A DNA stretch of 16,869 bases, from assembly GCA_018400815.1 (NCBI GenBank), contig JAGYLS010000037.1, positions 1 through 16,869 on the forward strand, written 5' to 3'. Positions within the stretch are counted from its first letter, which is position 1. Each line of letters opens with the position of its first letter. This document shows positions 1 through 16,869 of this stretch, one piece after another. Both the position numbers and the translations under genes were made by a program. This DNA is from Candidatus Oleincola secundus. Its GTDB lineage: Bacteria; Atribacterota; Phoenicimicrobiia; Phoenicimicrobiales; Stramentimicrobiaceae. The notes below the pieces were generated by a model. The model saw nothing but the letters and a program-made list of their open reading frames with translations, did not search any database and had not been told where the DNA came from.

Positions 1-1
1 A

Positions 2-58: not shown

Positions 59-69
59 TTTAAACCATA

Positions 70-906: not shown

Positions 907-908
907 TA

Positions 909-1202: not shown

Positions 1203-1219
1203 AGACAATATGTTATTAT
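1191..1219. promoter_or_regulatory. Overlapping divergent -10 elements for argS (+) and the RNHCP gene (-)
   Basis: + strand TGtTATTAT at 1211-1219, 7 nt before ATG 1227; - strand TAACAT at 1215-1210, 7 nt before ATG 1202. Confidence 0.5.
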
Positions 1220-1226
1220 TACAACA

Positions 1227-2990
1227 ATGAATATAACACAATTATTACAAAAAAATACTGATTATGTAAATCCCTCTCAGGAAATAATTCGACAAAAATT
1301 ATTTGAAATCATAAAAGATTATAAAATAGAAGAGGATGTTCTTTTTGTCGTGGAACAACCGTTAGAAGAATCTCATGGGGACTATGCGACAAATGTAGCA
1401 ATGGCATTGGCTGGTATTTTAAAAAAGAGCCCTTTGGAAATTGCTCAGGACATAGTTAAAAAATTTGATAAGTCTGACTTTCTGGAAAGTATTAATGCCG
1501 TTGCACCAGGATTCGTTAATTTTAAATTTAAAAATGATTTTTTTATTAAAGAGTTAAATAAAATTTTAATTAAAAAAGAAAGTTATGGAAAATTTGATAA
1601 TTTGATATTAGAACATCCAGAGAAGATAATGGTTGAGTTTGGACAACCTAATACCCATAAAGCTTTCACAGTTGGGCATATCAAAGGGACGATATCTGGT
1701 TTATCGGTTTGCAACTTGATTGAAAACTTGGGCTATGGGGTTATTAAGACAAATTATTATGGGGATATTGGGATGCACACAGCAAAGTGTACCTGGGGGG
1801 TAATTAAAAAAGGTTTGCCAGAAAATTTTGGAACTTGGAATGAACATAAAAAAATGGAATTCATTGCTGATGCCTATGTCTATGCTTCAGAAAATTTTGA
1901 AAAAAGTGAAGATGAAATTAGAAAGATAAATTTAGATATTTACAATAATAATAAAACAGAGGCAACTGAGTTATATGAAAAAATAAAGATTTGGAGTTTG
2001 GAGCATCAAAAATCTGTTTTTGAAAATTTGGGGGTTTTTTTCGATAAACAATATCCAGAAAGCCAAGTATTTGAAAATGCTAAAAAAATAGTCAATCAAA
2101 ATGTTGGGAAAATTTTTAAAGAAAGTCAGGGAGCTATTATTTATGACGGTGAAAAAGAAGGTTTAAATATTTGGGTGGTACAGACTAGCGAGGGCAACCC
2201 AACTTACATGGCAAAAGATTTGTCTTTAGGTTTTCAAAAATTTCAGGATTATCCTGATTTATACTCAAATATTACTTTAACTGCAATAGAACAGAAAGAT
2301 CATTTCAAAGCTGTTATAAAAATACTGGAAACTTTTGATGAAAAATTCAAAGATAAATATTTCCATGTTCATTTTGGATGGTTATTGATGGATGGGAAAA
2401 AGACTAGTTCTAGAAGTGGGAAAAATATTAAAGGGACTGATATGCTCGAAGAATCCTTGGAAGTGGCTAGAACTAAAATTGCGGAATTGAAAGATTATGA
2501 TAAAGAAAAAAAAGAAGAAATTGCGCGTGTAGTGGCTTTGGCTGGAATTAAATTTTTAATTCTTTCTCACGATTTTAATAAAGATGTAAATTACGACCCA
2601 AAGAAATTTATTGATTTTGAGGGCTATTCAGGTCCTTATATTTTATATGCCTATGTAAGGGCACAATCTATTTTAAGGAAGTCAGAAAAATATGAATCTA
2701 TAAAAGATTTAAAGGTTGATAATTTAAATGATTACGAATTAGGTTTGTTGAAATGGTTGGCGCGTTATCCCCACGTTGCTTACCGGGCAGGAATAGAGAT
2801 AGCCCCTCATCTTCTCTGTGTCTATTTGTTTGAGCTATCTCAAAGATTTAATTCTTTTTACGCAAATTGTCCTGTTTTGGATGCTTCGGAAAAAGAAAAA
2901 GAAACTCGTTTAGCTTTAGCAGAAGGCACAGCTCAAGTTCTAAAAAATGGTTTAGGTTTGTTGGGAATTGAAACTGTTGAGGAGATGTAA
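1227..2990 (+). CDS. argS: Arginine--tRNA ligase
   Basis: HGDYATNVA N-domain, EFGQPNTHKAFTVGH (HIGH region), NYYGDIG, KTSSRSG (KMSKS region), GPYILYAYVRAQSIL and DALR domain ending GLLGI...EEM; start reassigned to ATG 1227. Confidence 0.95.
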   Translation: MNITQLLQKNTDYVNPSQEIIRQKLFEIIKDYKIEEDVLFVVEQPLEESHGDYATNVAMALAGILKKSPLEIAQDIVKKFDKSDFLESINAVAPGFVNFKFKNDFFIKELNKILIKKESYGKFDNLILEHPEKIMVEFGQPNTHKAFTVGHIKGTISGLSVCNLIENLGYGVIKTNYYGDIGMHTAKCTWGVIKKGLPENFGTWNEHKKMEFIADAYVYASENFEKSEDEIRKINLDIYNNNKTEATELYEKIKIWSLEHQKSVFENLGVFFDKQYPESQVFENAKKIVNQNVGKIFKESQGAIIYDGEKEGLNIWVVQTSEGNPTYMAKDLSLGFQKFQDYPDLYSNITLTAIEQKDHFKAVIKILETFDEKFKDKYFHVHFGWLLMDGKKTSSRSGKNIKGTDMLEESLEVARTKIAELKDYDKEKKEEIARVVALAGIKFLILSHDFNKDVNYDPKKFIDFEGYSGPYILYAYVRAQSILRKSEKYESIKDLKVDNLNDYELGLLKWLARYPHVAYRAGIEIAPHLLCVYLFELSQRFNSFYANCPVLDASEKEKETRLALAEGTAQVLKNGLGLLGIETVEEM

Positions 2991-2998
2991 AAGTATAA

Positions 2999-3082
2999 AT
3001 CCTGTTAGAAATTCTAATGGAATGAGTTATATTGAGTTGAGTAACAACAAAAAAATTATAAATTAACTACCTCTAACGGGAT
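2999..3082. repeat. Short element bounded by 11-bp imperfect inverted repeats
   Basis: ATCCTGTTAGA (2999-3009) and TCTAACGGGAT (3072-3082), 10/11 complementary; a further partial arm TTCTAATGG at 3012-3020. Confidence 0.5.
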
Positions 3083-4706
3083 GAAACAAAAAGAAGCCTT
3101 AGAAATTTTAAAAATGGGGAAGAATGTATTTTTAACCGGTCCAGCTGGGAGTGGTAAAACTTATGTTTTAAATCAATATATTGATTTTTTAAAAGAGAAA
3201 AAAGTTTCGGTTGGGGTAACAGCTTCCACTGGTATTGCTTCTACCCATTTGAATGGAATTACTATTCATTCATGGTCAGGTCTAGGTATCAAAGATAATT
3301 TGTCTGAACATGAGATTGAAAAGTTATTATCCAAGAGTTACCTCAAGAAAAAATTTAAATATACTCAGGTTTTGGTGATTGATGAAATTTCTATGTTGCA
3401 TGGTTTTCAGTTAGATGCTGTAGATAGAATTTGTCGTGCTTTTAAACAATCCACAGCCCCTTTCGGTGGGATGCAGATAGTTTTATGTGGTGACTTTTTT
3501 CAACTACCTCCTATCAATAAAGGTGATTTAGAAATTAATTTTGCCTACAAGGCTGAGATTTGGGGAATTATGGATTTACAAGTTTGTTATCTTAGTGAAC
3601 AATATCGACAAGCACTAACTGATGATCTACTAAGTGTCTTAAATGATATCCGCCAAAATGAGATTAGTAAAAGAACTCAAGAACTACTTCAACAGCGACA
3701 ATCAGCTAAACGAAATAAAATTATTCCAACTAAATTGTACACACATAATAGGGAAGTGGACCAATTAAATTTACAGGAATTAGACAAGATCAGTGGTTTC
3801 CCTAACGTCTACCAAATGCAGTTTACTGGTGCTAGGAAATTGGCAGAGAGTTTGAAGAAAAGTTGTTTGGCTATGGAGGAATTGCGTTTAAAAAAAGACG
3901 CTGTGGTGATGTTTGTTAAAAATAATTTTGAAGCTGGTTATGTTAATGGGACTTTAGGAGTTGTGGTAGATTTTGATGGAAATTTGCCAGTCATCCGGAC
4001 CTATAGTGGAAAAGAAATAATTGTAGATTATGAGAATTGGCATATTGAAGAAGAGGGAATTATGAAGGCTAAAATCACTCAAATACCACTTCGTTTAGCT
4101 TGGGCTATTACTGTCCACAAAAGCCAGGGAATGAGCCTTGATGCGGCTGAAATTGACCTTTCACGGTCATTTGTAGCTGGAATGGGTTATGTGGCCTTAT
4201 CTCGGGTTAGGTCTTTAGATGGCCTGTATTTAAAGGGTATAAATAGTATGGCTTTACAGGTGGATGAGAACATTTTGGCTTTTGATCAGGAGTTAAAAGA
4301 AAAATCAGAACGAGCTGTTAGACAATTAAAAATAACACCGAAGGATAGAAAAGGTAACTTACAAAAAGAGTTTTTAAATCAAGCCGTGGTTGATGTTCCT
4401 GTCGAAGAGAAAATTTCTACTTACGATTTGACTAAACAATTAGTAGCACAAGAAATGACTATCGGAGATATGGCTAGGGAAAGAGGTATGACAGAATCAA
4501 CCATCGTCAATCATCTGGAAAAATTGGCAGAGGAGAAGGGGACCGGGCGAGTAAATTTAGACTACTTGAAAGATGATATTAAAGATTTTGAAAAGATTAA
4601 GAAAGCTTGGAAGAAAACTAAAGGTGATAAATTAACTCCTGTTAAAAAGATTTTAGGTAATAAGTATTCTTTTGAGGATATTCGAGTGGCGAGGTTATTT
4701 TTGTAG
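3081..4706 (+). CDS. PIF1-family (SF1B) DNA helicase with C-terminal helix-turn-helix domain
   Basis: GPAGSGKT, DEISM, GDFFQLPP, AWAITVHKSQG, YVALSR; C-terminal ARERGMTESTIVNHL HTH. Confidence 0.9.
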   Translation: MKQKEALEILKMGKNVFLTGPAGSGKTYVLNQYIDFLKEKKVSVGVTASTGIASTHLNGITIHSWSGLGIKDNLSEHEIEKLLSKSYLKKKFKYTQVLVIDEISMLHGFQLDAVDRICRAFKQSTAPFGGMQIVLCGDFFQLPPINKGDLEINFAYKAEIWGIMDLQVCYLSEQYRQALTDDLLSVLNDIRQNEISKRTQELLQQRQSAKRNKIIPTKLYTHNREVDQLNLQELDKISGFPNVYQMQFTGARKLAESLKKSCLAMEELRLKKDAVVMFVKNNFEAGYVNGTLGVVVDFDGNLPVIRTYSGKEIIVDYENWHIEEEGIMKAKITQIPLRLAWAITVHKSQGMSLDAAEIDLSRSFVAGMGYVALSRVRSLDGLYLKGINSMALQVDENILAFDQELKEKSERAVRQLKITPKDRKGNLQKEFLNQAVVDVPVEEKISTYDLTKQLVAQEMTIGDMARERGMTESTIVNHLEKLAEEKGTGRVNLDYLKDDIKDFEKIKKAWKKTKGDKLTPVKKILGNKYSFEDIRVARLFL

Positions 4707-4709
4707 ATT

Positions 4710-5639
4710 TTATAAGAATTTTAATTTACCTATTACTTCTTGAACATTCTTATAATTCTTTTTTTGTAAAATTTCTACTAATTCTTTTTCTATACGTTGG
4801 AAACAAGAGGGACCTTCTTTTTCGAAAGTTGTACCAATTTGAACTGCATTCGCTCCGGCTAAGAGAAATTCAAAAACATCTTCTCCCGTTTTAATTCCTC
4901 CGACGCCGAAGATAAATACCTTGTTTTTTAAAAGATTGTAAAAACCTTGGACATTACCTAATGCTATTGGTTTTATATAATCTCCTGACAAACCACCCCT
5001 TCCTTTTTTGGGTTTAATTAAAGGTTTTTCTGATTTTGAATCAATTATTAAACTATTTCCTAAAGAATTAATACATGTAATAAATGATATTTTATATTTT
5101 TTTATTATCTCAACCATTTTTTCTTGTAGGGCCGAATCAAGATAAGCAGGCAATTTTAGACCAATTGGTTTTTTCCCTAAGTTAATTAATTGGGATAACA
5201 ATTTTTCTGTTTCATCGAAGTCATAGCCGATTTGTGAGTGACCTTCTAAGTTAGGGCAGGAGAGACTAATTTCAATAAAATCAACATCGCTTTTTTGAAA
5301 AGCTTCAACTATGGTTTTATAATCTTCTATTGAAAATCCTCCGACACTGGCAATTATTGGTTTAGTAGTTTTTTCTTTTATTTTTTTCGCAAATTCAATA
5401 TATTTTTTATACCCTAAATTAGGCCAGCCCATACTTTGAATTAAACCGAGAGGAGTGGAAACACAACGAGGGTTATGATTTCCCTCTCTCGGTTCTATCG
5501 TGCAAGTTTTCATCACAATAGCTCCAGAATTACTTCCAGCTAATATCTCTAACTCTTTTAAAGTGATATCTTTTACGCCTGAAGCATTAAATATACAAGA
5601 ATTGAAGTATTTGTTTAATAACTTAGTTTTAGTATTCAT
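4710..5639 (-). CDS. pyrD: Dihydroorotate dehydrogenase class 1A-like flavoprotein
   Basis: NASG, MKTCT..PR.GN..PR, SMG.PNLG, LSCPN (catalytic Cys), KLP.Y, INSLGN, GG.SG.YIKP.AL.NV, GVGGI.TG.D, QIGT. Confidence 0.88.
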   Translation of the reverse strand: MNTKTKLLNKYFNSCIFNASGVKDITLKELEILAGSNSGAIVMKTCTIEPREGNHNPRCVSTPLGLIQSMGWPNLGYKKYIEFAKKIKEKTTKPIIASVGGFSIEDYKTIVEAFQKSDVDFIEISLSCPNLEGHSQIGYDFDETEKLLSQLINLGKKPIGLKLPAYLDSALQEKMVEIIKKYKISFITCINSLGNSLIIDSKSEKPLIKPKKGRGGLSGDYIKPIALGNVQGFYNLLKNKVFIFGVGGIKTGEDVFEFLLAGANAVQIGTTFEKEGPSCFQRIEKELVEILQKKNYKNVQEVIGKLKFL

Positions 5640-5642
5640 TTG

Positions 5643-5714
5643 CGGGTCTAGCAGGACTCGAACCTGCAGTCCTGGTTTTGGAGACCAGTGGTTTACCAGT
5701 TAACCGATAGACCC
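5643..5714 (-). tRNA. tRNA-Trp (CCA)
   Basis: Acceptor GGGTCTA/TAGACCC, anticodon arm CTGGT-CTCCAAA-ACCAG, T arm GCAGG-TTCGAGT-CCTGC; 3' CCA not encoded. Confidence 0.95.
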
Positions 5715-5722
5715 GTAGGGAT

Positions 5723-5817
5723 AGTATAAAGTCAAAAGTCCATAAAGTCCATAAAGCAAGGGTGATACACTGTACTTTTTATTTGAGGCTTTTGGTTTTA
5801 TAAACTTTATGGACTTT
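5723..5817. repeat. Tandem AAAGTCCAT repeats with an inverted copy, upstream of tRNA-Trp
   Basis: AAAGTC-A-AAAGTCCAT-AAAGTCCAT-AAAG at 5728-5756; inverted ACTTTATGGACTTT at 5804-5817. Confidence 0.75.
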
Positions 5818-5823
5818 CAGTTC

Positions 5824-5877
5824 GAATCTAAAAAATAAAAAACTGCAATTAATTGCAGTTTTTTATTTTTTAGATTC
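5824..5877 (-). terminator. 54-bp perfect palindrome, probable rpmG terminator
   Basis: GAATCTAAAAAATAAAAAACTGCAATT|AATTGCAGTTTTTTATTTTTTAGATTC; overlaps the last 15 nt of rpmG; T-runs on both strands. Confidence 0.7.
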
Positions 5878-6021
5878 TTTATGGCTAACGTGCTTTTGAC
5901 ACCATTTGCAAAACTTCTTGAATTCCAATTTTCTTTCGACTAACTTCTTATTTTTACTTGTCCAGTAATTGATTCTTTTACAATCCTGACAAGCCATTTT
6001 AATTAATCTTTCTTGTGACAT
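5863..6021 (-). CDS. rpmG: 50S ribosomal protein L33, zinc-binding (C+) form, 52 aa; not in the ORF track
   Basis: Hand translation MSQERLIKMACQDCKRINYWTSKNKKLVERKLEFKKFCKWCQKHVSHKESKK*; two CxxC motifs; conserved position upstream of tRNA-Trp. Confidence 0.95.
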   Translation of the reverse strand: MSQERLIKMACQDCKRINYWTSKNKKLVERKLEFKKFCKWCQKHVSHKESKK

Positions 6022-6027
6022 GGGGGC

Positions 6028-6056
6028 ATTATATAGGAGATTATGATTATAATCAA
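6028..6056 (-). promoter_or_regulatory. Sigma70-type promoter of rpmG
   Basis: TTGATT-17 nt-TATAAT, then GCCCCC and ATG (6-nt gap, so probably leaderless). Confidence 0.7.
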
Positions 6057-6099
6057 GAGCAAAAAACGAATTTTTATTTTTTTATAATATTATATATAG

Positions 6100-6172
6100 T
6101 CCGCCCGACAGGGATCGAACCTGTGACCGTCAACTTAAGAGGCTGCTGCTCTACCATCTGAGCTACGGGCGG
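6100..6172 (-). tRNA. tRNA-Lys (CTT)
   Basis: Acceptor CCGCCCG/CGGGCGG, D arm GCTC/GAGC, anticodon loop CTCTTAA, T arm ACAGG-TTCGATC-CCTGT. Confidence 0.93.
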
Positions 6173-6227
6173 ATGTTTTTATTTACAATCAACATCTATA
6201 TTATCTTTATTTGTTCTTGATTTCAAG

Positions 6228-7058
6228 TTATTTAAGGATTATTTTTTTTGCTTTTATTTCACTGCCAAAAAATTTACTCCCTAATCTTGTAAATTTATCA
6301 GTGAGGTCAGTTGAATAAAAAACTCTTTTTTTATTTTTACCAAGTTTTTCCTCTATATCAGAATGCTTTTTTAGATAGATTTCTAATTTTTTTGGTATGA
6401 TTTTTGCTTCAGATAAGACGACGATTCGTTTTCCAACAATTTTTTTTATTTTTCTTTCTAAAATCCCGTAATGTGTACAACCTAAAATTAAAGTATCGAT
6501 ATTTTGTTCTATTAGAGGTTCCAAATATTTAAGTAAGATTGTTTCAGTAAAATTTGAGTTTTGTTCTCCGGCTTCTACTATTGGGACTAATAGTGGACAT
6601 GATTTTTGAAGAGCTTTTATTTTTGGGTTAAGCTTTAGTAGTTCTTTTTTGAAGGATTCTGATCTTATAGTCCCTTCTGTGGCAATAACGCCGATTTTAT
6701 TGTTGTTTGTTTTTGTGATTGCTTCTTCCACTGTTGGGATTAAAACACCCAAAACTCTTTTATCTGGATAATACTTAGGTAGATATTCTTGTTGAATTTT
6801 TTTAAGGGCATCACTTGAAGCAGTATTGCAAGCTAAAATTATTATTTCACAATTACTTTCAAATAAAAAATTTATTGCTTGTTTAGTAAATTCATAAACA
6901 ACTTCGCTTGATCTTGTTCCGTAAGGAGTACGAGCGGTGTCACCTAAATAAATGTAATTATAATCGGGGAGCTTTTTTGTTATGGTTTTTAATATATCTA
7001 AACCACCAAAGCCGGAATCAAATATTCCAATAGATTTATTTTTATCAGCTCCTTTCAT
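6228..7058 (-). CDS. murI: Glutamate racemase
   Basis: IGIFDSGFGGL, GDTARTPYG, ACNTAS and LGCTHY (both catalytic Cys present). Confidence 0.96.
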   Translation of the reverse strand: MKGADKNKSIGIFDSGFGGLDILKTITKKLPDYNYIYLGDTARTPYGTRSSEVVYEFTKQAINFLFESNCEIIILACNTASSDALKKIQQEYLPKYYPDKRVLGVLIPTVEEAITKTNNNKIGVIATEGTIRSESFKKELLKLNPKIKALQKSCPLLVPIVEAGEQNSNFTETILLKYLEPLIEQNIDTLILGCTHYGILERKIKKIVGKRIVVLSEAKIIPKKLEIYLKKHSDIEEKLGKNKKRVFYSTDLTDKFTRLGSKFFGSEIKAKKIILK

Positions 7059-7077
7059 AGATTTTTAAAAAAATGTG

Positions 7078-7159
7078 TGCCCGGGGCGGGGGTCGAACCC
7101 GCATCCCGTGAGAGACACGATTTTAAGTCGTGCGCGTATACCAATTCCGCCACCCGGGC
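7078..7159 (-). tRNA. tRNA-Leu (TAA)
   Basis: Acceptor GCCCGGG/CCCGGGC, anticodon arm CACGA-CTTAAAA-TCGTG, long variable arm, GGTTCGAC T loop. Confidence 0.95.
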
Positions 7160-7186
7160 ATTTTTATTTCAATGTTCTTAAACCTG

Positions 7187-7258
7187 AGGCCTAGGTCGGA
7201 ATCGAACCGACTCATGGAGGTTTTGCAGACCCCAGCGTTCCCACTTCGCCACTAGACC
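7187..7258 (-). tRNA. tRNA-Cys (GCA)
   Basis: Acceptor GGTCTAG/CTAGGCC, anticodon loop CTGCAAA, U73 discriminator, T arm GTCGG-TTCGATT-CCGAC. Confidence 0.95.
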
Positions 7259-7279
7259 TTTCTTAGCGTCTCCTACAGT

Positions 7280-7603
7280 TTACAAATTTGAAGACAACTC
7301 GTCAATTCTTTGACGGTTTTTTTCTCCATAATCTATTTCGAAATCAAGAAAAGGGGTATTCTTCATACTTAATTTTGACTGAACAAAACTTCTAATATCG
7401 CTTCTTTGTCGCTTAACAAAATCCAATGCTGACTTCTCACTTGAGTCTGGTAAGACGGTTATGAAGATTGTCGATCTTTTGAAGTCCTTTGATAAGTCAG
7501 CATTTGTAACTGTGATTAGAGAAGTCCGATTCGATTCTCTCCCCAAAAACTGAGCGACTAGATTTTTGATATTTTCTTTTACTTTTTCTTGTCTGAGAGT
7601 CAT
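7280..7603 (-). CDS. rbfA: Ribosome-binding factor A
   Basis: RQEKV.E.I, LITVT.ADLSKD, TP.LDF..D.G..NRQRIDEL; directly after infB; start reassigned to ATG 7603. Confidence 0.92.
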   Translation of the reverse strand: MTLRQEKVKENIKNLVAQFLGRESNRTSLITVTNADLSKDFKRSTIFITVLPDSSEKSALDFVKRQRSDIRSFVQSKLSMKNTPFLDFEIDYGEKNRQRIDELSSNL

Positions 7604-7607
7604 TTTA

Positions 7608-9110
7608 TTATTTTTCGACAATTTTATAAGCTTCCAAAACATCTCCGGGAGTGATATCGATTTTTGATTTTAAGTCCATCCCGAACTCATCTCCTTCATT
7701 TACTTCTTTAGTTTGAATTTTTTGACTTTGCATACCAACAATAACACCTCTACCGATCTCAAAATCTCTTCTTAAAATTTTAACATCAGCAGATAAAACT
7801 AATTTTCCTTCTTTTACTTTTCCACCAATGATTTGGTTAGTTTTTGTTTTACTGAAAACTCTAATAATTTTTGCTAAACCAATTTTTTCCTCAACTTTTA
7901 TTTTTGGAACAAGATCCTTTATATTTTCTTCCAACCATTCGGTTAGTTTATAGATAACGTCAACTACAACGATTTTGATTCCCTGTCGTTCAGCCAAGTC
8001 TTTTATATGTTGACTAACCTTAACATTGAAGCCAACAATCAAGGTGTTTTCTTTACTACCGGTTGTCTTTATATCATTTTCATTAATATCTCCAACCCCT
8101 GCGGAAATAATTTGAATAGAAGCTCTTTCCTGTTCTATTTTTTCTATTTCCTGTTGAATAGCGTCTATAGAACCAAAAACATCAGCTTTCACAATTATGG
8201 AAATTTTTGTATCATCGTCATTAGAAGATGATCTATTAATAATTGTTTTATCTGGTATTATGTCTTCTTTTTCCAAACTATTTGCTGCCATTTCAGCTTC
8301 TTTTTTCGAAGTAAAAGTTTTAAAAAAAGTTCCAGCTTCCGGAACTCCATTGATTCCAATTAATTTAATAGGACTAGAAAAAGTAGCTTCATTAATAAGG
8401 TTTCCAGAGAAATCTTCTAATCTCCTGATGGGACTAACTTTGCCGTCTATCAAAATAAAGTTTCCTTTTTTCAATGTTCCGTTTTTTATTATAGCAACTA
8501 TCTCTGTCCCTTTTTGAGTGTCTATTTTTGACTCCAAAACAAAACCACTGGCTAAATTATTTTCACCACCTTTTAATTCTTCCATTTCTGAGGCCAAAAA
8601 AATAGTCTCTAAAAGTTCAGGAACACCTTCTCCTGTTTTTGCTGAAATTGCATTAAAGGGTACATCTCCTCCGAGGCCTTCAAGAAAAATTTCATTTTCC
8701 ATCAGTTCTTGTTTTACTCTTTCGACGTTTGCATTAGGTTTATCAATTTTATTTATGGCAACTATAAAAGGTATCTCAGCTTCTTTAATACTTTTATAAG
8801 CTTCAATCGTTTGAGGTTTTACACCATCTTCAGCCGAAACAATTAAGATAGCAATATCAGCTATACAAGCACCTGTAGAACGAACATTACAAAAGGCAGC
8901 ATGTCCAGGGGTATCTATAAAAGTAATTCTTCTTTTTTCATAAACAACTTCATAGGCAGAGATATGTTGAGTAATACTTCCAGCTTCACTTTCAACAATG
9001 TTGGTTTTACGAATAAAATCTAAGAGTGTAGATTTCCCATGATCAATATGACCCATGACAACAACTACAGGAGGTCTTTCTATTAAGTTTTCTTCTTTTT
9101 TTTTAATCAT
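7608..9110 (-). CDS. infB: Translation initiation factor IF-2, lacking the N-terminal domain
   Basis: RPPVVVVMGHIDHGKSTLLD, ITQHI, DTPGH, NKID, SAKTG, KADV.GS, IVGFNV, VIYKL, GDEFG. Confidence 0.96.
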   Translation of the reverse strand: MIKKKEENLIERPPVVVVMGHIDHGKSTLLDFIRKTNIVESEAGSITQHISAYEVVYEKRRITFIDTPGHAAFCNVRSTGACIADIAILIVSAEDGVKPQTIEAYKSIKEAEIPFIVAINKIDKPNANVERVKQELMENEIFLEGLGGDVPFNAISAKTGEGVPELLETIFLASEMEELKGGENNLASGFVLESKIDTQKGTEIVAIIKNGTLKKGNFILIDGKVSPIRRLEDFSGNLINEATFSSPIKLIGINGVPEAGTFFKTFTSKKEAEMAANSLEKEDIIPDKTIINRSSSNDDDTKISIIVKADVFGSIDAIQQEIEKIEQERASIQIISAGVGDINENDIKTTGSKENTLIVGFNVKVSQHIKDLAERQGIKIVVVDVIYKLTEWLEENIKDLVPKIKVEEKIGLAKIIRVFSKTKTNQIIGGKVKEGKLVLSADVKILRRDFEIGRGVIVGMQSQKIQTKEVNEGDEFGMDLKSKIDITPGDVLEAYKIVEK

Positions 9111-9113
9111 GAT

Positions 9114-9581
9114 TTAAACAGATGCTTTCGTTTTATTTAAAGCTGAAGTTTCTTCTTCGGATAATTCGTATTTTGATTGCCAATCTTTTATTGGTTTAGC
9201 AAAGACGCGAACGTTGTCTCTAGCATATAAACTGGAGATTACTAGCCCGTTACCCTTTTTGTTCACAAGGGTAGCAGCAAAACTTTGATCCCCTCCAACA
9301 CCATTGTCTTTGAAAGGGTTGAATCGAATGACTTCTAAATTTTGAATACTATCTCCCAGCCTTTCTTCTATGACTTTAAACTTATTTATCGTTTTATTTT
9401 CGAATTGATGTAAATCTTCAATTTTATCATCAATAGAAATAATTTTGTTTCTTAAACTCCCTTTGTCTTTTAGAATTTTAATGTCTTTACTTTTTAATTC
9501 TAGACGGATAAGCCATAAAATAAGCAAGACATTTATTCCAACTAGTATATACAAGGTTATTTCTTCTATAGTAAAAGTCAT
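9114..9581 (-). CDS. DUF4446 family membrane-anchored protein
   Basis: N-terminal TM helix, coiled segment, IRFNPF.D..GGDQSFA..L....NG.VISSLY.R...RVFAKPI, LSEEE. Confidence 0.85.
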   Translation of the reverse strand: MTFTIEEITLYILVGINVLLILWLIRLELKSKDIKILKDKGSLRNKIISIDDKIEDLHQFENKTINKFKVIEERLGDSIQNLEVIRFNPFKDNGVGGDQSFAATLVNKKGNGLVISSLYARDNVRVFAKPIKDWQSKYELSEEETSALNKTKASV

Positions 9582-9591
9582 TATGCCTGAA

Positions 9592-9619
9592 ATTATACAC
9601 TACAAGGGCTTTTTTGCAA
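9592..9619 (-). promoter_or_regulatory. Sigma70-type promoter of the DUF4446-infB-rbfA operon
   Basis: TTGCAA-16 nt-TATAAT, 10 nt before ATG 9581. Confidence 0.6.
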
Positions 9620-9638
9620 TTTAACCTATAAAAAATAA

Positions 9639-9715
9639 GACGGGCAAGGCGGCTAAAACATCTTCGATGTTCGCCCGATCAAAACAAAGTTTTGATTTAG
9701 GGAGCCTTGCCCGTC
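9639..9715. repeat. Branched palindromic (REP/MITE-like) element
   Basis: Outer 12-bp perfect inverted repeat GACGGGCAAGGC/GCCTTGCCCGTC enclosing AACATC-TTC-GATGTT and ATCAAAAC-AAA-GTTTTGAT. Confidence 0.75.
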
Positions 9716-9761
9716 CTCGCCCTTCATTTTCATCAACCTCAAAAAATGTTAACATATAGAA

Positions 9762-10961
9762 ATGTTAAATAGGAAGATAAACCATAAAACATTGTTTGGG
9801 CGAGGAAGAATTTACTTGGATCACGCAGCTGCCACACCTTTACGATCCGAAGCTAAAAAGGTCATGGATCGTTTTTGGGACGTTGATTTTGGTAATGCAG
9901 GAGCAATTCACACCGAAGGAGTCATTGCCAAAAAGGCTGTGGCCGATTCCAGGAAAACAATTGCCGATATACTTAATGCTCAACCAAACGAAATAACTTT
10001 TACTTCCGGAGGAACAGAAGCCAACAGTTTGGCTATCCTTGGTTTTATTAATAAATTAAATGAAACAGGTAAAAGATTTGAAGAAATGCACTTAATCACC
10101 AGCACTTTTGAACACCCTTCAGTCTTGCAATGTTTTAAATATTTTGAAGGCGAAGGTGCGCAAGTTGATTATTTAAATATTGATCAAGAGGGGATAGTGA
10201 GTTTAGAACAACTAAAAAAAATAATAAATACAAAAACAGTTCTAATTTCAATTATGTTCGTCAATAATGAAATCGGTACTATTCAACCAATTTCAGAAAT
10301 AGCTAAAATCATCCATAACTTTAAAAAAAGACAACCACAACAGACCAACTTTCCCGTTTTCCATAGCGACGCTGCCCAAGCACTTCTTTTCTTACCTATC
10401 AATACACAAAAACTAAATGTTGATATGATGAGTTTTGATGCACAAAAAATTTATGGTCCCAAAGGTGTGGGAGCGCTCTTCATTAGAAAAGGAATTGAAA
10501 TCAACCCTCTCATCATTGGAGGTGGCCAAGAAAGAGGTTTGCGCCCGGGAACAGAAAACACTCCACTGATTGTCGGTTTCGCTAAAGCTTTGGAACTAGC
10601 CGAATACGAAAAAGAAAAAGAATCCCAAAGGCTAACAGAACTAAGAGATTATTTTATTACAGAAATTCTTAAAAAAATTCCATGCGCGAAATTAAACGGC
10701 AGTCCAGAAAAACGCCTTTGCAATAGTGCCAACATCTTTTTCCCAAAAATTAACAATGAATTTCTTGTCATCCAGTTAGATCAAAAGGGAATTGCTTGTT
10801 CTACTAAATCAGCTTGTTTAACAAACAAGGCTTCCTATGTAGTTAACTCTCTCGGAGCAGGAGAAAATAGAGGAGACGGTTCAGTTAGATTTACTTTGGG
10901 TAAATCCACTACTAAACAAAATATTGATTATCTAATTAGGTGTCTTGTAGAAATTTGTTGA
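9762..10961 (+). CDS. Cysteine desulfurase, IscS/NifS family (class V PLP aminotransferase fold)
   Basis: YLDHAAATP, FTSGGTEAN, EHPSV, NNEIGTIQP, HSDAAQ, AQKIYGPKG (PLP Lys), RPGTEN, KSAC (catalytic Cys). Confidence 0.92.
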   Translation: MLNRKINHKTLFGRGRIYLDHAAATPLRSEAKKVMDRFWDVDFGNAGAIHTEGVIAKKAVADSRKTIADILNAQPNEITFTSGGTEANSLAILGFINKLNETGKRFEEMHLITSTFEHPSVLQCFKYFEGEGAQVDYLNIDQEGIVSLEQLKKIINTKTVLISIMFVNNEIGTIQPISEIAKIIHNFKKRQPQQTNFPVFHSDAAQALLFLPINTQKLNVDMMSFDAQKIYGPKGVGALFIRKGIEINPLIIGGGQERGLRPGTENTPLIVGFAKALELAEYEKEKESQRLTELRDYFITEILKKIPCAKLNGSPEKRLCNSANIFFPKINNEFLVIQLDQKGIACSTKSACLTNKASYVVNSLGAGENRGDGSVRFTLGKSTTKQNIDYLIRCLVEIC

Positions 10962-10963
10962 AT

Positions 10964-10991
10964 TTGATTTAAATTTTTTTTTCTATATAAT
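10964..10991 (+). promoter_or_regulatory. Sigma70-type promoter of the HtrA-like gene
   Basis: TTGATT-16 nt-TATAAT, 7 nt before ATG 10999. Confidence 0.6.
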
Positions 10992-10998
10992 TTGACTT

Positions 10999-11904
10999 AT
11001 GGATATAGAAGAATTAAACAAAACACAAATAATTCTTTTGACTCTCTTAATAAGTTTCGTTACTTCTATTGCTACTGGGATAGTGACCGTTTCCTTAGTT
11101 AATCAGGCTCCTCCTGTTGTCACTGATACCATTCACCGAGTTATTGAAAAAACAGTTGAAAGAGTTGTTCCTGGTGAACAAAAAGCTACCATCATTGAGA
11201 ACACAAAAACGATAATAATTAGTGATCAAGATTTTATCATCGATGCCATTGAAGATAATTCAGAATCTCTAGTGAGAGTTTTCACCACTGTTGAAATTAA
11301 AGATGCAGAAGGAATAATTACACAGACAGATAAATTTGTTGGTTTGGGAATTATTATTTCCGCTGAAGGTAAAATTATAATGAATAGTCTTGACCTACCA
11401 AAGGATCCAGAAACGACAGAATTTTTTATTACGATTAAAGATAAGAAAATAAAATTAAATATTATTGAAAAACTACCCAGTAACGAAATCACTTTGCTAA
11501 CTATTCAGCCAGAAGAAGCTGAAAATAAATACGTCTTTAAACCAGTTAAATTAGGCAACTCAGATGCTCTTAAATTGGGTCAGTCAATTGTTTCCATAGG
11601 TGGGAAAGAATCAAATGTTGTTTTAACAGGAATTATTTCAAACTTGAAGATAGGGGAATTACCAACCCTAACGGCTACTTCAACTAATCCAATTGCTGAG
11701 GATAAACCAAAAAACATTATTTTAGAAATTGAAACTAATTTAGATTCTCAATTACCTATGGGGTTACTTATTGATTTGGACGGAGAGATTATTGGATTCA
11801 AATCTACCACTAACTTTTATATACCTGTTGATCTAATCAAACAGGACTTAGATAAAATAAATAAGGTGGCCACAGAGAATTCTCAGCCAACTACTGGAAT
11901 ATAG
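10999..11904 (+). CDS. Membrane-anchored HtrA/DegP-like trypsin-fold protein, catalytic triad apparently lost, no PDZ domain
   Basis: TM helix; SLVRV, GLGIIISAEG, LGNSD.LKLGQ.IVSIG, V.TGIIS, IET, LIDLDGEIIG align with the S1C scaffold, but TNxHV, D and GNSGG are absent. Confidence 0.7.
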   Translation: MDIEELNKTQIILLTLLISFVTSIATGIVTVSLVNQAPPVVTDTIHRVIEKTVERVVPGEQKATIIENTKTIIISDQDFIIDAIEDNSESLVRVFTTVEIKDAEGIITQTDKFVGLGIIISAEGKIIMNSLDLPKDPETTEFFITIKDKKIKLNIIEKLPSNEITLLTIQPEEAENKYVFKPVKLGNSDALKLGQSIVSIGGKESNVVLTGIISNLKIGELPTLTATSTNPIAEDKPKNIILEIETNLDSQLPMGLLIDLDGEIIGFKSTTNFYIPVDLIKQDLDKINKVATENSQPTTGI

Positions 11905-11910
11905 ATACGA

Positions 11911-11939
11911 TTGACCAAACCACAAAAATCCAGTATATT
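11911..11939 (+). promoter_or_regulatory. Sigma70-type promoter of the Clp ATPase gene
   Basis: TTGACC-17 nt-TATATT. Confidence 0.6.
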
Positions 11940-11963
11940 ATTGGTAAGTTGTTTTGTGTGGAT

Positions 11964-11994
11964 AGTGAGGTTTTTGCTTCGCAAAAACCTCACT
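11964..11994. repeat. Perfect 14-bp hairpin with TTC/GAA triloop in the clp leader
   Basis: AGTGAGGTTTTTGC-TTC-GCAAAAACCTCACT. Confidence 0.75.
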
Positions 11995-12021
11995 CACCAC
12001 CAAACCGAAAAAACTAAAATC

Positions 12022-14709
12022 ATGCCACCATTTCAAAATTTCACAACAAAAGCAAAAGAAGTCATTCGTCATTCTCACGAATTGGCTATTGAACGAGGAC
12101 AAAACCACGTTAGCCACCTCCACCTTTTTGCTGCTATTTTAATACAAGAAGAAAATACTGTAATTTCTATTCTAGAAAAATTGAATGTTGATATCATACT
12201 TTTAGCCGACACTTTGCTTGAGTTGATTGAATCTCCAGAAAAAGCCACTACTTTAACACCTTCCTACCAAATATTTTTGACTCCAGAATTAGCAGAAGTT
12301 CTACAGAAAACAACCCTCATAGCTCAGAACCTTGGTGATGATTTTGTTTCGGTTGAGCATCTCTTCATAGCCCTTTTTGATGTTCCAGGAGATATTCATG
12401 AGATAATGAATAGATTTAACATCAAGAAAGAAGAGGTCCTTTCAATTCTACAAGAGATAAAAGAAGGTAAAATTACAGATGTAAAAAAACCAAAAAAATA
12501 TAAAGCCCTTTCAAAATTCACCAGGGATTTAACTAAATTAGCCAACGAAAATAAATTAGATCCTGTTATTGGACGAGACAATGAAATTCGCCGAATTGTT
12601 CAGATTCTTTCTCGCCGAACCAAAAATAATCCAATACTAATAGGGGATGCTGGTGTAGGAAAAACCGCTATCGCCGAAGGTTTAGCTTTACGAATTGCTC
12701 AAGGTGATATCCCAGGATCACTAAAAGATAAAAAAATAGTTTCTCTAGACATTGGTCTTTTGGTAGCCGGTACAAAATATAGAGGAGAATTTGAAGATCG
12801 TCTTAAAGCTATCATCAAAGAAATTCAACAATCAGATGGGAAAATAATTCTTTTCATTGATGAAGTTCATACCATCGTCGGTGCCGGGGCATCAGAAGGA
12901 TCCATGGATGCTTCTAATATGCTTAAACCTGCTTTAGCTAGAGGAGAGTTACAAGCTATCGGGGCAACTACTTTAAGAGAATATCAAAGATATATTGAAA
13001 AAGATCCAGCTTTAACTAGGCGATTTCAACCTGTTCACGTTAGTGAACCATCCATTGAAGACACTATCGCCATTCTCAGAGGTCTTAAGGAGAGATATGA
13101 AATGTATCATGGGGTCAAAATCATAGATGATGCCATTGTAGCAGCGGTTAATTTATCAAGTCGTTATATCACAGATAGATTTTTACCAGATAAGGCCATT
13201 GATCTAATTGATGAATCAGCTTCATCTTTAAAAATTTCATTGGAAAACAAACCACCCGTCTTAGAAGAGACTGACAGAAATGTAAGAAGGTTAGAAATTG
13301 AAAAACAAGCACTCAAAAAAGATTCTAAGCCGAAAAATAATGCTCGTATAAAAAAAATAGAAGAAGAGATAGCTAATCTAAAAGAAAAGACTTCCGAACT
13401 ATCTGTTAAATGGAACAACGAAAAAACAATTCTATCTGAAATAAAAGATATTAAAGAAAGACTGGAACAATTTAGATTGGAATCAGACCAAAGTGAAATT
13501 ATGGCTGATTTAGCGAGAACTGCTGAAATAAGATATTCTGAAATTCCAAAAGCTGAAAAAGAATTAAAAGAAAATATAGATAGATTAAAGAAGTTGAAAA
13601 AAAGTGGGCGTATTCTTAATGAAGAAATTACAGCTGAAGATATTGCTGATATTGTTAGCCGTTGGACAGGAATTCCAATTACTAGGATGCTGGAGGAAGA
13701 GGCATCTAAATTAGGGAGAATTGAAGATGATCTTAAAAAAGTTGTTATCGGACAAGATGATGCTATTCGTAAAATAGCCGATGCGATTAAAAGATCCCGT
13801 GTAGGTATTTCTGATCCGAATCGACCTATTGGTTCTTTTATGTTTTTGGGTCCCACAGGAGTAGGGAAGACTGAATTAACGAAAAAGTTAGCAGAAACTA
13901 TGTTTAATGATAGTAAGGCTTTAATTAGAGTTGATATGTCTGAATACATGGAAAAGCATAGTATTTCAAAATTAATTGGTGCCCCTCCAGGTTATGTTGG
14001 CCATGAAGAAGGTGGTTCTCTAACTGAAACAGTTCGTCACAGGCCTTACTCTGTTATTTTGTTTGATGAGATAGAAAAAGCTCATCCAGAAGTCTTTAAC
14101 TTATTGTTGCAGGTTTTAGATGACGGTGTTTTGACCGACGCTAAGGGTAAAGTCGCTAATTTCAAAAATACTATTATAATTTTAACCTCAAACATTGGTT
14201 CTAAATTCATCGGTAGAATGGAAACTATTGGTTTCAATAATGATACAAGTGAAGAACAATATGAGGAAACTAAGAAGAAAGTTTTGGACTCCCTTAAAGA
14301 TTATTTTAGACCAGAATTTTTGAATCGTTTGGACGATATTATTGTTTTTGATATTTTAAAGATGGATACCACTCAAAAAATTGTTGATATTCAAATTGAT
14401 TTAATAAAAAAGAGACTAAAAGATAAAAATATTACCCTAAGTATTTCAAAGGGGGCTCTTTTATATTTAGTTAAAAAAGGCTATAATCCACAGTACGGAG
14501 CGAGACCTTTGAAACGATTAATTCAAAATGAAATTTTAACACCTGTAGCTACAGAAATGATTTCCAACGGAATGATGCAAGGAGGTTCAGTTTCAATTGA
14601 TGTTAAAAATGAAAAATTAACTTTTGTTGTAAAAAAGAAAGGTGGTGTTTCAGTTACAAAGAAAGTAAAAAGTAGTAAAAAAACAGTTAAAGAAAAAGTT
14701 TCTGTCTAA
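12022..14709 (+). CDS. clpB: ATP-dependent Clp chaperone, ClpB-type with long M domain and an IGF loop
   Basis: Clp N repeats, NBD1 [20 protein letters not shown], long coiled-coil M domain, NBD2 [20 protein letters not shown]; start reassigned to ATG 12022 (MPPFQNFT). Confidence 0.88.
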
Positions 14710-14729
14710 AATTATAAGTTCTTATCGTC

Positions 14730-14765
14730 GACTTTTGACTTTAAGGACTTTATAAACTTTAGACT
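14730..14765 (+). repeat. Degenerate (G/A)ACTTT tandem repeats upstream of tRNA-Tyr, possibly its promoter
   Basis: GACTTTT-GACTTTAAG-GACTTTATA-AACTTTA-GACT; contains TTGACT and TAGACT. Confidence 0.6.
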
Positions 14766-14772
14766 AAATTAT

Positions 14773-14858
14773 GCGTCGGTGGTAGAGCGGTCAAATACAC
14801 GAGTCTGTAAAACTCGCGCCTTCGGGCTACGCAGGTTCGAATCCTGCCCGGCGCACCA
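14773..14858 (+). tRNA. tRNA-Tyr (GTA), 3' CCA encoded
   Basis: Acceptor GCGTCGG/CCGGCGC, anticodon arm CGAGT-CTGTAAA-ACTCG, long variable arm GCC-TTCG-GGC, T arm GCAGG-TTCGAAT-CCTGC, ACCA end. Confidence 0.97.
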
Positions 14859-14898
14859 GAATATTAAAACAGCCCTCAATGGGCTGTTTTAATATTCT
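14858..14898 (+). terminator. Intrinsic terminator of tRNA-Tyr (copy 1)
   Basis: 18-bp perfect stem AGAATATTAAAACAGCCC-TCAAT-GGGCTGTTTTAATATTCT. Confidence 0.8.
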
Positions 14899-14902
14899 AA
14901 TC

Positions 14903-15065
14903 GGTGCGCCGGGCAGGATTCGAAAAACGGACTGAGCGAAGCGAGGGAGTTGGGGTCGAGAGTACTTAATAATTTTGGAGTACGAAGTACGAACAAAATT
15001 ATTTAGTAACTCGTGACCGAATCCTGCCCGGCTTTAAACAGCCCTCAATGGGCTGTTTTAATATT
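14903..15065. mobile_element. Putative non-coding tRNA-associated element: inverted tRNA 3' copy, structured core, direct tRNA 3' copy and second terminator copy
   Basis: 14903-14924 is the reverse complement of 14836-14857; 15018-15032 equals 14838-14852; 15036-15065 equals 14867-14896. Mobility is inferred, not shown. Confidence 0.6.
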
Positions 15066-15093
15066 GTATTAACATTAAGAACTATTTCAAAAA

Positions 15094-15118
15094 GGCGGAA
15101 AATCAAAGATTTTCCGCC
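15094..15118. terminator. Perfect 11-bp hairpin with AAA triloop, possible minus-strand terminator or REP-like site
   Basis: GGCGGAAAATC-AAA-GATTTTCCGCC, followed by a T-run on the minus strand. Confidence 0.55.
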
Positions 15119-15119
15119 C

Positions 15120-15149
15120 CCTATCCCAGTAAAACCCCCTTAATTCTTC
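15120..15149 (+). repeat. Direct repeat, left of creD
   Basis: CCTATCCCAGTAAAACCCccttAATTCTTC; 27/30 identical to 16649-16678, first 18 bp exact. Confidence 0.85.
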
Positions 15150-15186
15150 CATATCAATGACATCCGCAGACAAAAATTTCAAATCC

Positions 15187-15215
15187 TTGCTGTATTTACC
15201 AATAAGTTTTATTAT
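15187..15215 (+). promoter_or_regulatory. Sigma70-type promoter of creD
   Basis: TTGCTG-17 nt-TATTAT, 7 nt before ATG 15223. Confidence 0.5.
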
Positions 15216-15222
15216 ATATTAT

Positions 15223-16641
15223 ATGGATACGTTACAAAAAACATTACAAAGTACCACTATCAGGGTTGTCTTTGTTGCTATTTTAGCTCTATTATTACTG
15301 ATTCCTACGGGGATGATTAAATCTGTCATTCGTGAGAGGGAAATGAATCGTGACACAGCCATAGCCAGCGTGATTTCAGATTGGGGAGGAAAGCAAGTTG
15401 TGGTAGGTCCCATTTTGACTGTTCCTTATGACGTTTATAGAACCGTTGACGGCAAACAAATCAAAGAGCTTGCCTATGTTCATTTTCTACCAGAAGAACT
15501 TACAATAGAATCTACTATTAAACCCGAACTAAGATCTCGAGGAATTTATGACGCAGTTGTCTATAACTCCGATCTTCATTTTTCAGGAAACTTTCCTCAA
15601 CTGGATTTTAAAGCTTTAGGTATAGAGTCTTATCAATTACACAGGACAGAAGCCTTTGTTAGTATTGGAATTCCTGATATGCGTGGGTTAGAGGAAAGAA
15701 CAATTTTTAAATTAGGAAACAAAGATTTACAATTTATTTCGGGTATTATTACCGATGATGTGATTAGAAACTTTACTGATCCTCAAGCGTTTTATTTCCC
15801 AGAAGAACAAACCAAGAGAATAATGGTGGAGGGGTCAGTAGGGAATAGCGCTTCGGGTTTGAATGCTGATGTTCCGGAAGCTTTTCTTTATTCGGCTTCT
15901 AACTTTGAATTTAATTTAAAATTAAAGGGAAGTGAGAGATTAGCTTTCATACCTTTAGGAGAAACTACTGATGTTCAGATAAATTCTAATTGGACATCTC
16001 CCAGCTTTGATGGATCATTCCTACCGGATGAAAGAGAACTTTCTGAAGAAGGTTTTACCAGCTCTTGGCATGTTTTAGATTTAAATAGAAATTATCCGCA
16101 AGCTTGGGTAGGTGACAGTTACAATGTCTACGACTCTGTTTTTGGAGTAAGTTTAATTAACCCAGTCGACGGTTACCAGAAATCAAATCGTTCTATTAAC
16201 TATGCTCTATTAATTATAGCTTTAACATTCTTAATCTTTTTATCATTTGAAATCTTCAATAGAAAAAGAGTTCATCCTGTTCAATATATCTTGGTGGGGT
16301 TGGCTTTGGTTTTGTTTTATACTTTGTTGGTTTCCATTTCAGAAATCCTTGGATTCGATAAGGCCTATGGAATTGCCAGTGTGGCTACCATCGGATTGAT
16401 TATTTTGTATTCTAATACAGTTCTACAGTCAAAAAGATTTGTGGCTATTCAAGGAGGAGTCCTAGTCTTTTTGTATACTTTTGTTTTTATTCTTCTCCAA
16501 TTAGAAGATTACGCTTTGCTGATTGGCAGTACCGGGCTTTTCCTTATTTTAGCCAGCATTATGTATCTGTCTCGAAAAGTGGATTGGTATACTCTTGATA
16601 AAAAGGAAATGGAAACACTTGATGATTTTTATAATCAATAA
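15223..16641 (+). CDS. creD: Cell envelope integrity inner membrane protein CreD
   Basis: LLIP..MI..VI.ERE, WGG.Q.V.GP.L.VPY, LPE.L, RGIY, W.SPSF.G.FLP, GF.SSW, FGV.L..PVD.YQ...R..YA, HPVQY.LVG.AL..FY.LL.SISE, LEDYALL.GS, MY.SR.VDWY; start reassigned to ATG 15223. Confidence 0.93.
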   Translation: MDTLQKTLQSTTIRVVFVAILALLLLIPTGMIKSVIREREMNRDTAIASVISDWGGKQVVVGPILTVPYDVYRTVDGKQIKELAYVHFLPEELTIESTIKPELRSRGIYDAVVYNSDLHFSGNFPQLDFKALGIESYQLHRTEAFVSIGIPDMRGLEERTIFKLGNKDLQFISGIITDDVIRNFTDPQAFYFPEEQTKRIMVEGSVGNSASGLNADVPEAFLYSASNFEFNLKLKGSERLAFIPLGETTDVQINSNWTSPSFDGSFLPDERELSEEGFTSSWHVLDLNRNYPQAWVGDSYNVYDSVFGVSLINPVDGYQKSNRSINYALLIIALTFLIFLSFEIFNRKRVHPVQYILVGLALVLFYTLLVSISEILGFDKAYGIASVATIGLIILYSNTVLQSKRFVAIQGGVLVFLYTFVFILLQLEDYALLIGSTGLFLILASIMYLSRKVDWYTLDKKEMETLDDFYNQ

Positions 16642-16648
16642 AAAGTCT

Positions 16649-16678
16649 CCTATCCCAGTAAAACCCGCCGAATTCTTC
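16649..16678 (+). repeat. Direct repeat, right of creD
   Basis: CCTATCCCAGTAAAACCCgccgAATTCTTC, starting 7 nt after the creD stop. Confidence 0.85.
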
Positions 16679-16691
16679 TGGATTAAACAAT

Positions 16692-16730
16692 AAAAACAGC
16701 GGGCTAATCATTGTTGACGATTAGTCCGCT
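16692..16730 (-). terminator. Intrinsic terminator between convergent genes
   Basis: AGCGGGCTAATC/GATTAGTCCGCT stem (16698-16730), followed by GTTTTT on the minus strand. Confidence 0.6.
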
Positions 16731-16748
16731 TATCTATGATTTAAAAAC

Positions 16749-16868
16749 TTATTTAAGGTTTATGATTCTTTCAGCGCATTCTCTGGCGACTCTTGCGTCT
16801 GAGTTTTCACTCCCAGGCATCGTTGCCCAGCCTTGTTTTTGGATGTATTCATACCGAGTCCAAGAGTT
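16749..16868 (-). CDS. 3' end of a hypothetical protein (partial)
   Basis: Open frame from the window edge NSWTRYEYIQKQGWATMPGSENSDARVARECAERIINLK*, followed by a terminator. Confidence 0.65.
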   Translation of the reverse strand, partial: NSWTRYEYIQKQGWATMPGSENSDARVARECAERIINLK

Positions 16869-16869
16869 C

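Follow-up and report, generated by a model that had tools for sequence, protein, structure and literature searches.

A gene-less unit behind a tRNA-Tyr gene belongs to a widespread family of tRNA-linked cassettes that may move as folded single-stranded DNA

The repeat-bearing unit located directly behind the tRNA-Tyr gene of the window (the whole stretch of 16,869 nucleotides analyzed here) is best interpreted as a member of a widespread group of gene-less cassettes, each located downstream of a tRNA or tmRNA gene and bracketed by two copies of the 3' end of that gene, which likely move as a folded single DNA strand by means of a hypothetical enzyme of the host or of a visiting element. We assign this reading a probability of roughly 0.6. 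Each unit consists of a hairpin, a left arm, a core forming a three-way junction and a repeat of the tRNA end; the arms match the target, cores are shared within a genome, and the occupants of a given site turn over. The layout and the kind of unit are already known from the unexplained tRNA-linked repeats (TLRs) of E. coli, and the core family itself is a new variant. A family with TLR anatomy, a covarying core, many copies and visible turnover makes the mobility of TLRs, as well as the identity of their mover, a testable question, and if an enzyme exists that can place a short folded strand in the T-loop of any tRNA and restore the tRNA at the same time, it would represent a new kind of site-specific insertion.

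At the window locus the following features were delimited, with the evidence for each given in brackets:

14773..14858, + strand: intact tRNA-Tyr(GUA) gene with encoded CCA, the target gene (tRNA/Rfam search)
14836..14858, + strand: A, the tRNA end from T-loop to CCA, positions 54-76 (numbering read off the sequence)
14858..14898, + strand: hairpin T with an 18-bp stem (14858-14875/14881-14898), the upstream copy of the locus terminator, probably copied from the target (repeat search; same terminator behind the direct copy in the relatives G516 and G565)
14903..14924, + strand: left arm A', perfectly complementary to tRNA positions 54-75, which pairs with A or with the direct copy (repeat search, folding)
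14925..14951, + strand: core helix P2, with a 3-bp covarying stem, a GGA/GA internal loop and the apex GA-GC-GAA-GC-GA (covariation, covariance model R1)
14952..15018, + strand: core helix P3, with a GGTCG/TGACC base, a long hairpin and the apex GA-GTAC-GAA-GTAC-GA (folding, covariation; 80.6 bits with R1, which was built with the window sequence included)
15018..15032, + strand: A2, which repeats tRNA positions 56-70 in direct orientation up to an 11-bp deletion; putatively the original tRNA end, now displaced (repeat search)
15033..15068, + strand: T2, the older locus terminator, presumably pushed downstream (repeat search; loci of relatives)
15083..15118, + strand: possible, weakly marked relic of an older unit, with a decayed left arm and a P2-like hairpin (collinear with unit L113; scores 30 alone against a shuffled median of 27)

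The first-pass annotation of this DNA, made from its letters alone, had described a tRNA end repeated in direct, inverted and direct order around a structured core, and this architecture was recovered in full. An exact 22-bp inverted pair (14836-14857/14903-14924) forms, together with the terminator stem, a 40-bp hairpin with a 4-nt bulge (14899-14902). Likewise, the reported 15-bp direct copy (exact, 14838-14852/15018-15032) and the duplicated terminator are present, the latter as 36 nt matching at 94% (14864-14899/15033-15068), and the second A-T copy lacks 11 bp (14853-14863), tRNA positions 71-76 among them. The core carries both of the GA-stem-GAA-stem-GA motifs attributed to it and is indeed structured: its folding surpasses that of each of 200 shuffled versions, with z -3.9 for DNA and z -5.2 for RNA. 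The unit itself contains no open reading frame, is flanked by clpB and creD, and, as had also been noted, no mobilizing gene is found anywhere in the window.

The contig corresponding to window positions 1-16869 (C145) was assigned to bin G000, in which it supplies second copies of IF2, ClpB, MurI, PyrD, tRNA-Tyr and several other tRNAs. Since, in addition, the ClpB end of the window displays 83% identity to a genome from the order of G041, a Paceibacterota MAG, the contig is judged most likely to be a Patescibacteria stray, that is a contaminant, in a non-CPR bin. Only one copy of the unit was detected in G000 by BLAST and R1, which says little because the contig is a stray there, and for the same reason little can be read into the search of 40 relatives of that bin, which returned short matches only, mostly to the tRNA. 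Misassembly at the tRNA-Tyr locus was considered and rejected, as the junctions are covered by contigs from two runs (X1 and X2) of one sample, possibly the source. These contigs span 14867-15065 with zero differences, and neighboring contigs in the sample overlap the unit contig at the 30-bp terminator repeat; therefore the junctions on which the first description depended are real. At depths of 66/101/69 (X1) and 9/10/11 (X2), the contigs support the junctions and not the number of tandem units. Another contig of run X1, aligned to window 14918-14955, contains this half of P2, with 2 differences over 38 nt, joined to another left arm and another P3, and possibly derives from a different organism. 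In a 196-bp contig from another study the first 30 bases recur at the end (a 166-bp period), as in a tandem array or a circle.

The core is not unique to the window. A three-motif pattern taken from the window core and run on genome contigs matched at least 120 stretches and, as expected for the non-autonomous element targeting tRNA T-loops that the first-pass annotation had proposed, the core recurs behind many different tRNAs, with arms matched to the local gene and with empty sites in relatives. The titled stretches among the matches listed (n=80) comprise 64 from Patescibacteria, 3 from Elusimicrobia, 5 from Proteobacteria and 8 from bacteria without a finer name, and Betaproteobacteria are among the hosts. 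Within 160 nt behind a tRNA on the sense strand lie 91 of the 122 elements in the matches listed, with 23 anticodon labels, and tmRNA genes also carry units of this family. Model R1, built from the window and 80 of the pattern-found elements, gave 7-13 matches in each of five genomes, and 14, 25, 5, 14 and 0 matches in the five closest relatives of the window. It was positive in 6 of 41 genomes when applied to the betaproteobacterium G044 and 40 relatives, and in 7 of 151 sampled Patescibacteria, six of them with 5-8 matches, a lower bound given the strict filters and the 24 candidates considered per genome. Behind tRNA genes of CPR bacteria, such units account for false 'att site' calls and for assembly breaks.

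Searches of viral contigs returned 6 and 2 pattern matches and zero family members, phage records gave no match, and plasmids gave a single 22-bp chance match. When the window was compared with Rfam, the tRNA alone scored over threshold and matches to miRNA hairpins remained far below the cut-off, so that the concern that the core might match an already described Rfam family did not materialize. No description of the folded-core family was found in searches of openly accessible papers. An invertible element was rejected as an explanation, none of the 122 viewed cores being reversed relative to its own tRNA. Other core families with the same left-arm type are found behind tRNAs, several with a direct repeat (L321, L322, L325, L335, L337, L340, L344; L045; the tRNA-Ser(CGA) locus of G045), and the sequences suggest that cores are interchangeable between units that share this left-arm type. 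At several loci a second insertion at the last bases of the tRNA parts the unit from it (L038, L084, L102, L107, L108, L126; G045 contig C5 at ~131200-134300), and in L084 an ORF resembling a serine recombinase adjoins the unit.

The arms of these units follow the tRNA behind which they are located. Of 91 elements, 39 share with the local tRNA 12 nt or more of uninterrupted identity in direct orientation (control 0.0000), and 40 share 4 nt or more in inverted orientation (control 0.057). Where intact, the direct repeat extends family-wide from tRNA position 57 to about 73-76, its end falling at position 76 in CCA-encoding genes (mode, 12/35) and at 73-75 in 23/34 of the others, and it runs on through the terminator in only 5/31. 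Local matching extends to tRNAs with variant T-loops: in a set of 22 rows, from which a further 22 unanchored rows and 2 duplicates were left out, the direct copy matches its own tRNA in 21/22 and the left arm pairs in 18/22, being complementary in 13 and pairing via tandem G.A pairs in 5, and the four misses include one mis-assigned tRNA and one mis-anchored row (L127 His, L298), which are to be discounted. The left arm of 32 of the 122 copies is split, at a point 3 or 4 nt upstream of the core, by a conserved hairpin whose loop is often CTGC, and once this hairpin is removed at least 10 of 13-14 positions of the arm match the local tRNA in 23/29. In the Patescibacteria as well as in the Elusimicrobia and Betaproteobacteria, the hairpin faces the T-stem/acceptor junction (e.g. 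L081, L099, L156); it may represent either a second parasite or an arm that mimics a tRNA.

Nevertheless, the target is not copied in every left arm and about half of the direct copies are decayed, which weighs against the cassette reading, and in some copies arms or hairpins look donor-derived (e.g. L055, G045 Leu, G045 Gly). The origin of the arms by fold-back synthesis at the terminator, proposed in the first-pass annotation, remains attractive for the window locus, where the upstream terminator looks copied from the target, since in relatives that terminator is found solely behind the direct copy. For the family at large pure fold-back is not supported, in view of the G.A arms, the hairpin-split arms, the arms or hairpins that look taken over from other tRNAs, and the direct repeat, which usually stops at the mature tRNA end and does not cover the terminator.

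A donor circle carrying its old tRNA end could not give rise to arms that match the local tRNA, even at variant T-loops. This bears on the proposal that the unit is a tyrosine-recombinase substrate, either the smallest remnant of islands that integrate into T-loops or a single-stranded attachment site that folds and is used by host XerCD, in the way known for CTX phage or integron attC, which we consider improbable. According to the accessible part of the Islander paper (PMC4383910), tyrosine-integrase islands in tRNA genes, including a T-loop/junction class, leave a restored gene and a displaced 3' fragment, with crossover in the T-loop being common. The unit displays the same restored tRNA and displaced fragment, its folding recreates a duplex copy of the T-loop site, and 1-2 tyrosine recombinases were found in each of the five carriers tested. 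However, unlike such islands, it measures only ~170-180 bp, lacks an integrase, has an extra inverted arm, and presents one core family on dozens of tRNAs. A circle would import the donor tRNA end, yet the arms match at least 23 different tRNAs and tmRNA, and the recombinases, which by their size are probably housekeeping Xer proteins, are also found in 14/14 control genomes.

In the predicted fold the left arm pairs with the direct copy, closing a three-way junction with the core helices P2 and P3. Pairing is observed in 93.4% of the alignment cells, and among the 25 pairs 15 vary on both sides, and the covariation score is 0.429 against 0.139 in shuffled alignments and at most 0.109 with slid partners, values to be read with the caveat that invariant pairs were preset by the search pattern and that the shuffle controls overstate the signal, since related sequences are not independent. 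The folded elements are specific to one strand: GA-stem-GNA-stem-GA is present in 23/123 cores on the + strand and in none on the - strand, and C(GNA)G triloops in 51/130 cores on the + strand (16 shuffled) and in 6 on the - strand. GNRA tetraloops show no enrichment in the cores (31 vs 29) and are enriched in the neighboring terminator hairpins (22/108 vs 11). Triloops of the d(GNA) type are stable in DNA and unstable in RNA, and their enrichment therefore points to a core that acts as folded single-stranded DNA, in line with the hairpins of single-stranded-DNA type that had been perceived in the window at the outset.

The choice between DNA and RNA is relevant, as the unit could instead encode a functional small RNA of the RtT/RrB type. 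A readthrough transcript would be cut at both tRNA-like 3' ends, releasing a structured RNA that serves as protein sponge, decoy or processing signal, and the units would spread only by rare gene conversion between tRNA loci, which we regard as unlikely. The distribution fits such a history poorly, being patchy and including arrays, up to 25 matches per genome and turnover at a single site. A strong terminator precedes many copies, the 3' repeat has decayed in about half, and the enriched loops are GNA triloops and not RNA tetraloops. Nonetheless, the folded strand is the transcribed strand, the extra hairpin is located opposite the T-stem/acceptor junction in a manner resembling the top half of a tRNA, and the repeat ends at 76 or 73-75 given above, which coincide with the mature tRNA 3' end, equally fit RNA processing or selection on RNA and to that extent count against a mobile cassette. 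Moreover, the accessible part of PMC8144298 describes transcription and processing of the TLRs of E. coli, reports that Hfq and CsrA are bound by RrB, and maps the 3' end of RrB next to the repeat.

Further signs of movement come from the comparison of cores and of orthologous sites. The nearest core is found in the same genome behind a different tRNA in 19 of 40 cases (1.5 expected), or in 17 of 38 when one double-counted element, the G125 Ser pair, is left out, and behind the same anticodon in another genome in 1 of 40 (1.2 expected); part of this similarity within genomes may be a lineage effect, because close relatives are thinly sampled. At the orthologous clpB-tRNA-Tyr site the tRNA was seen in 24 of 30 loci, of which 21 are readable and 3 incomplete, and inspection of the 21 by eye showed seven with this core family, seven with other cores having the same kind of left arm, and seven with none. 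In G516 and G565, the two closest relatives (L316, L317), the terminator of the window is kept behind the direct copy and is preceded by a different hairpin and a different core. Judged from these alignments, the units of the window, G516 and G565 look like independent insertions adjoining the tRNA. Arrays of unlike units also occur. As a separate observation, 5 of the 24 orthologous loci have the tRNA-Tyr gene turned around with respect to clpB (L333, L335, L337, L338, L343; also L044, L047), and each of the five contains a unit, compared with 9 of 16 readable loci oriented in the usual way, though the numbers are small; unit arms may promote local inversion.

The intermediate, the insertion chemistry and the enzyme are the parts of the cassette reading that we infer. 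We propose that the fixed 3' end of the core (TGACC) would be joined to the target at T-loop position 56/57, and that the tRNA end would be re-synthesized from the target, generating the direct repeat while the tRNA stays intact. The hairpin and the left arm would result from template switching, either by fold-back on the terminator hairpin, as in the window, or by a jump to donor sequence at the tRNA end, and the left arm would be kept paired with the local sequence by later correction or by selection. New units would enter adjoining the tRNA, and older units, together with the terminator, would be pushed downstream. Against this proposal, no enzyme was found, and neither an intermediate nor movement was seen in the present sequence comparisons.

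In fact, no mobility gene or integrase family recurs within 1.5 kb of 80 loci, the clusters of flanking ORFs being housekeeping genes. The fully read carriers G042 and G045 share 357 ORFs, and among these no distinctive enzyme was recognized by eye, serine recombinases, UPF0213-like GIY-YIG, DinB, Xer and RNase H being present. The first-pass annotation had looked to co-occurring HUH/TnpA-Y1, reverse transcriptase or recombinase genes, and none of them tracks the family. The Y1 HUH transposase (PF01797) was detected in 2/5 carriers, an incidence affected by MAG incompleteness, tyrosine recombinases were no more discriminating, as described above, and DinB is present in 6/7 carriers and 82/144 non-carriers. 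Small GIY-YIG proteins were encoded in 5/5 carriers, but the family is also present in 12/14 controls. Given that these genomes are MAGs, such misses do not prove absence. In three carrier genomes small GIY-YIG genes end just upstream of tRNA-Pro or tRNA-Asn genes (L372, L374, L375, L377).

Reverse transcriptase (RT) deserves separate consideration, as the unit might be a parasite resembling a retroelement, in which tRNA trailer RNA (hairpin, arm, core and tRNA end) is reverse transcribed by a borrowed RT into a nick at another tRNA gene. Such a route would explain why unit boundaries coincide with mature tRNA 3' ends and why the orientation is always sense. It is nevertheless very improbable: RT genes are found in 3/7 carriers and 51/144 non-carriers, and over cut-off in 1/5 carriers of a second set of MAGs, with none over cut-off in G565, G516, G045 and G042 (25, 14, 13 and 7 unit matches; MAGs, which may be incomplete), so the co-occurrence expected of non-autonomous retroelements is not seen. 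Furthermore, CCA is missing from upstream copies where the gene itself lacks CCA.

The closest known counterparts of the mobile cassette that we favor are the TLRs. The accessible part of PMC8144298 describes 22 of them in E. coli K-12, without genes, directly behind tRNA genes, often in tandem, and ending in 18-19 bp of the 3' end of the upstream gene; it names the tyrT/tyrV repeats and RtT RNA (Rfam RF00391), dates the first description to 1978, and reports no known function by 2021 save its own evidence for three members in rRNA operons, the TLRs of tRNA operons having no reported function. The core family resembles them in that the unit lies directly 3' of the gene and in the same orientation, in the window and in 91/122 family members. 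The terminal copy also corresponds, being 18-19 bp in TLRs and spanning positions 57 to 73-76 where intact in the core family, of which the window keeps 15 bp after its 11-bp deletion. The K-12 tyrT (L310) and lysT-lysQ (L311) loci have a left arm complementary to the end of the local tRNA and followed by GA-GAA or TCGAA, GCGNAGC hairpins are on the sense strand only, and in the lysQ unit the terminator is duplicated, as in the window. The inverted-arm layout accordingly has a precedent in E. coli TLRs, as read from the K-12 sequence; in its accessible part PMC8144298 mentions the direct repeat only.

The TLR core is a different one. With R1 none of the E. coli loci exceeds 12.6 bits, and RF00391, which in a control detected 9 E. 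coli units at 46.7-137.5 bits, gave no match at E<=5 in the window, none at E<=0.5 in 10 carrier loci and none over its cut-off (45 bits) in 5 carrier genomes. With a shared layout and models that do not cross-match, the unit is therefore built like a TLR and is not a member of RtT. In comparison with TLRs, the core family offers comparative evidence of turnover and spread. With regard to the E. coli units, mobilome coverage of the tyrT/rttR region was raised under stress, an increase that, in the accessible text, the authors credit to RNA/DNA hybrids (10.1101/2024.07.17.603846).

Among other mobile elements, casposons target the tRNA T-loop, create a direct duplication, insert in a polarized manner beside the tRNA and need Cas1, according to the accessible part of PMC5137440. 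In contrast, the present units have no fixed terminal inverted repeats, their duplication is the tRNA end itself, and Cas1 (PF01867) was found in 0/5 carriers. They also differ from MITEs, since their arms change with each tRNA instead of forming family-wide terminal inverted repeats, and no cognate transposase was found. Integron attC sites, CTX-phage attP(+) and REP/REPIN elements resemble the proposed cassettes in being single-stranded DNA that folds with conserved bulges, in their strand asymmetry and arrays, and in depending on an enzyme in trans. The units depart from these in having arms programmed by the target and in that Y1 is missing from 3/5 carriers.

A broader hypothesis is that TLRs, including RtT of E. 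coli, and the core family form a cross-phylum superfamily of self-retargeting single-stranded DNA cassettes, in which an enzyme would recognize the core by its fold, insert it into the T-loop of any tRNA or tmRNA, generate both arms on the model of the target and build polarized arrays. We advance it tentatively, as a possibility with the balance against it; if true, it would imply a new programmable insertion chemistry and an answer to a class of repeats unexplained since 1978. In the window itself, a long perfect palindrome located at 5818-5880, between tRNA-Trp and tRNA-Lys, starts at the T-loop-like GTTCGAATC and is preceded by short direct and inverted repeats at ~5729-5818. This palindrome, which receives no R1 score, may be a relic of a related unit.
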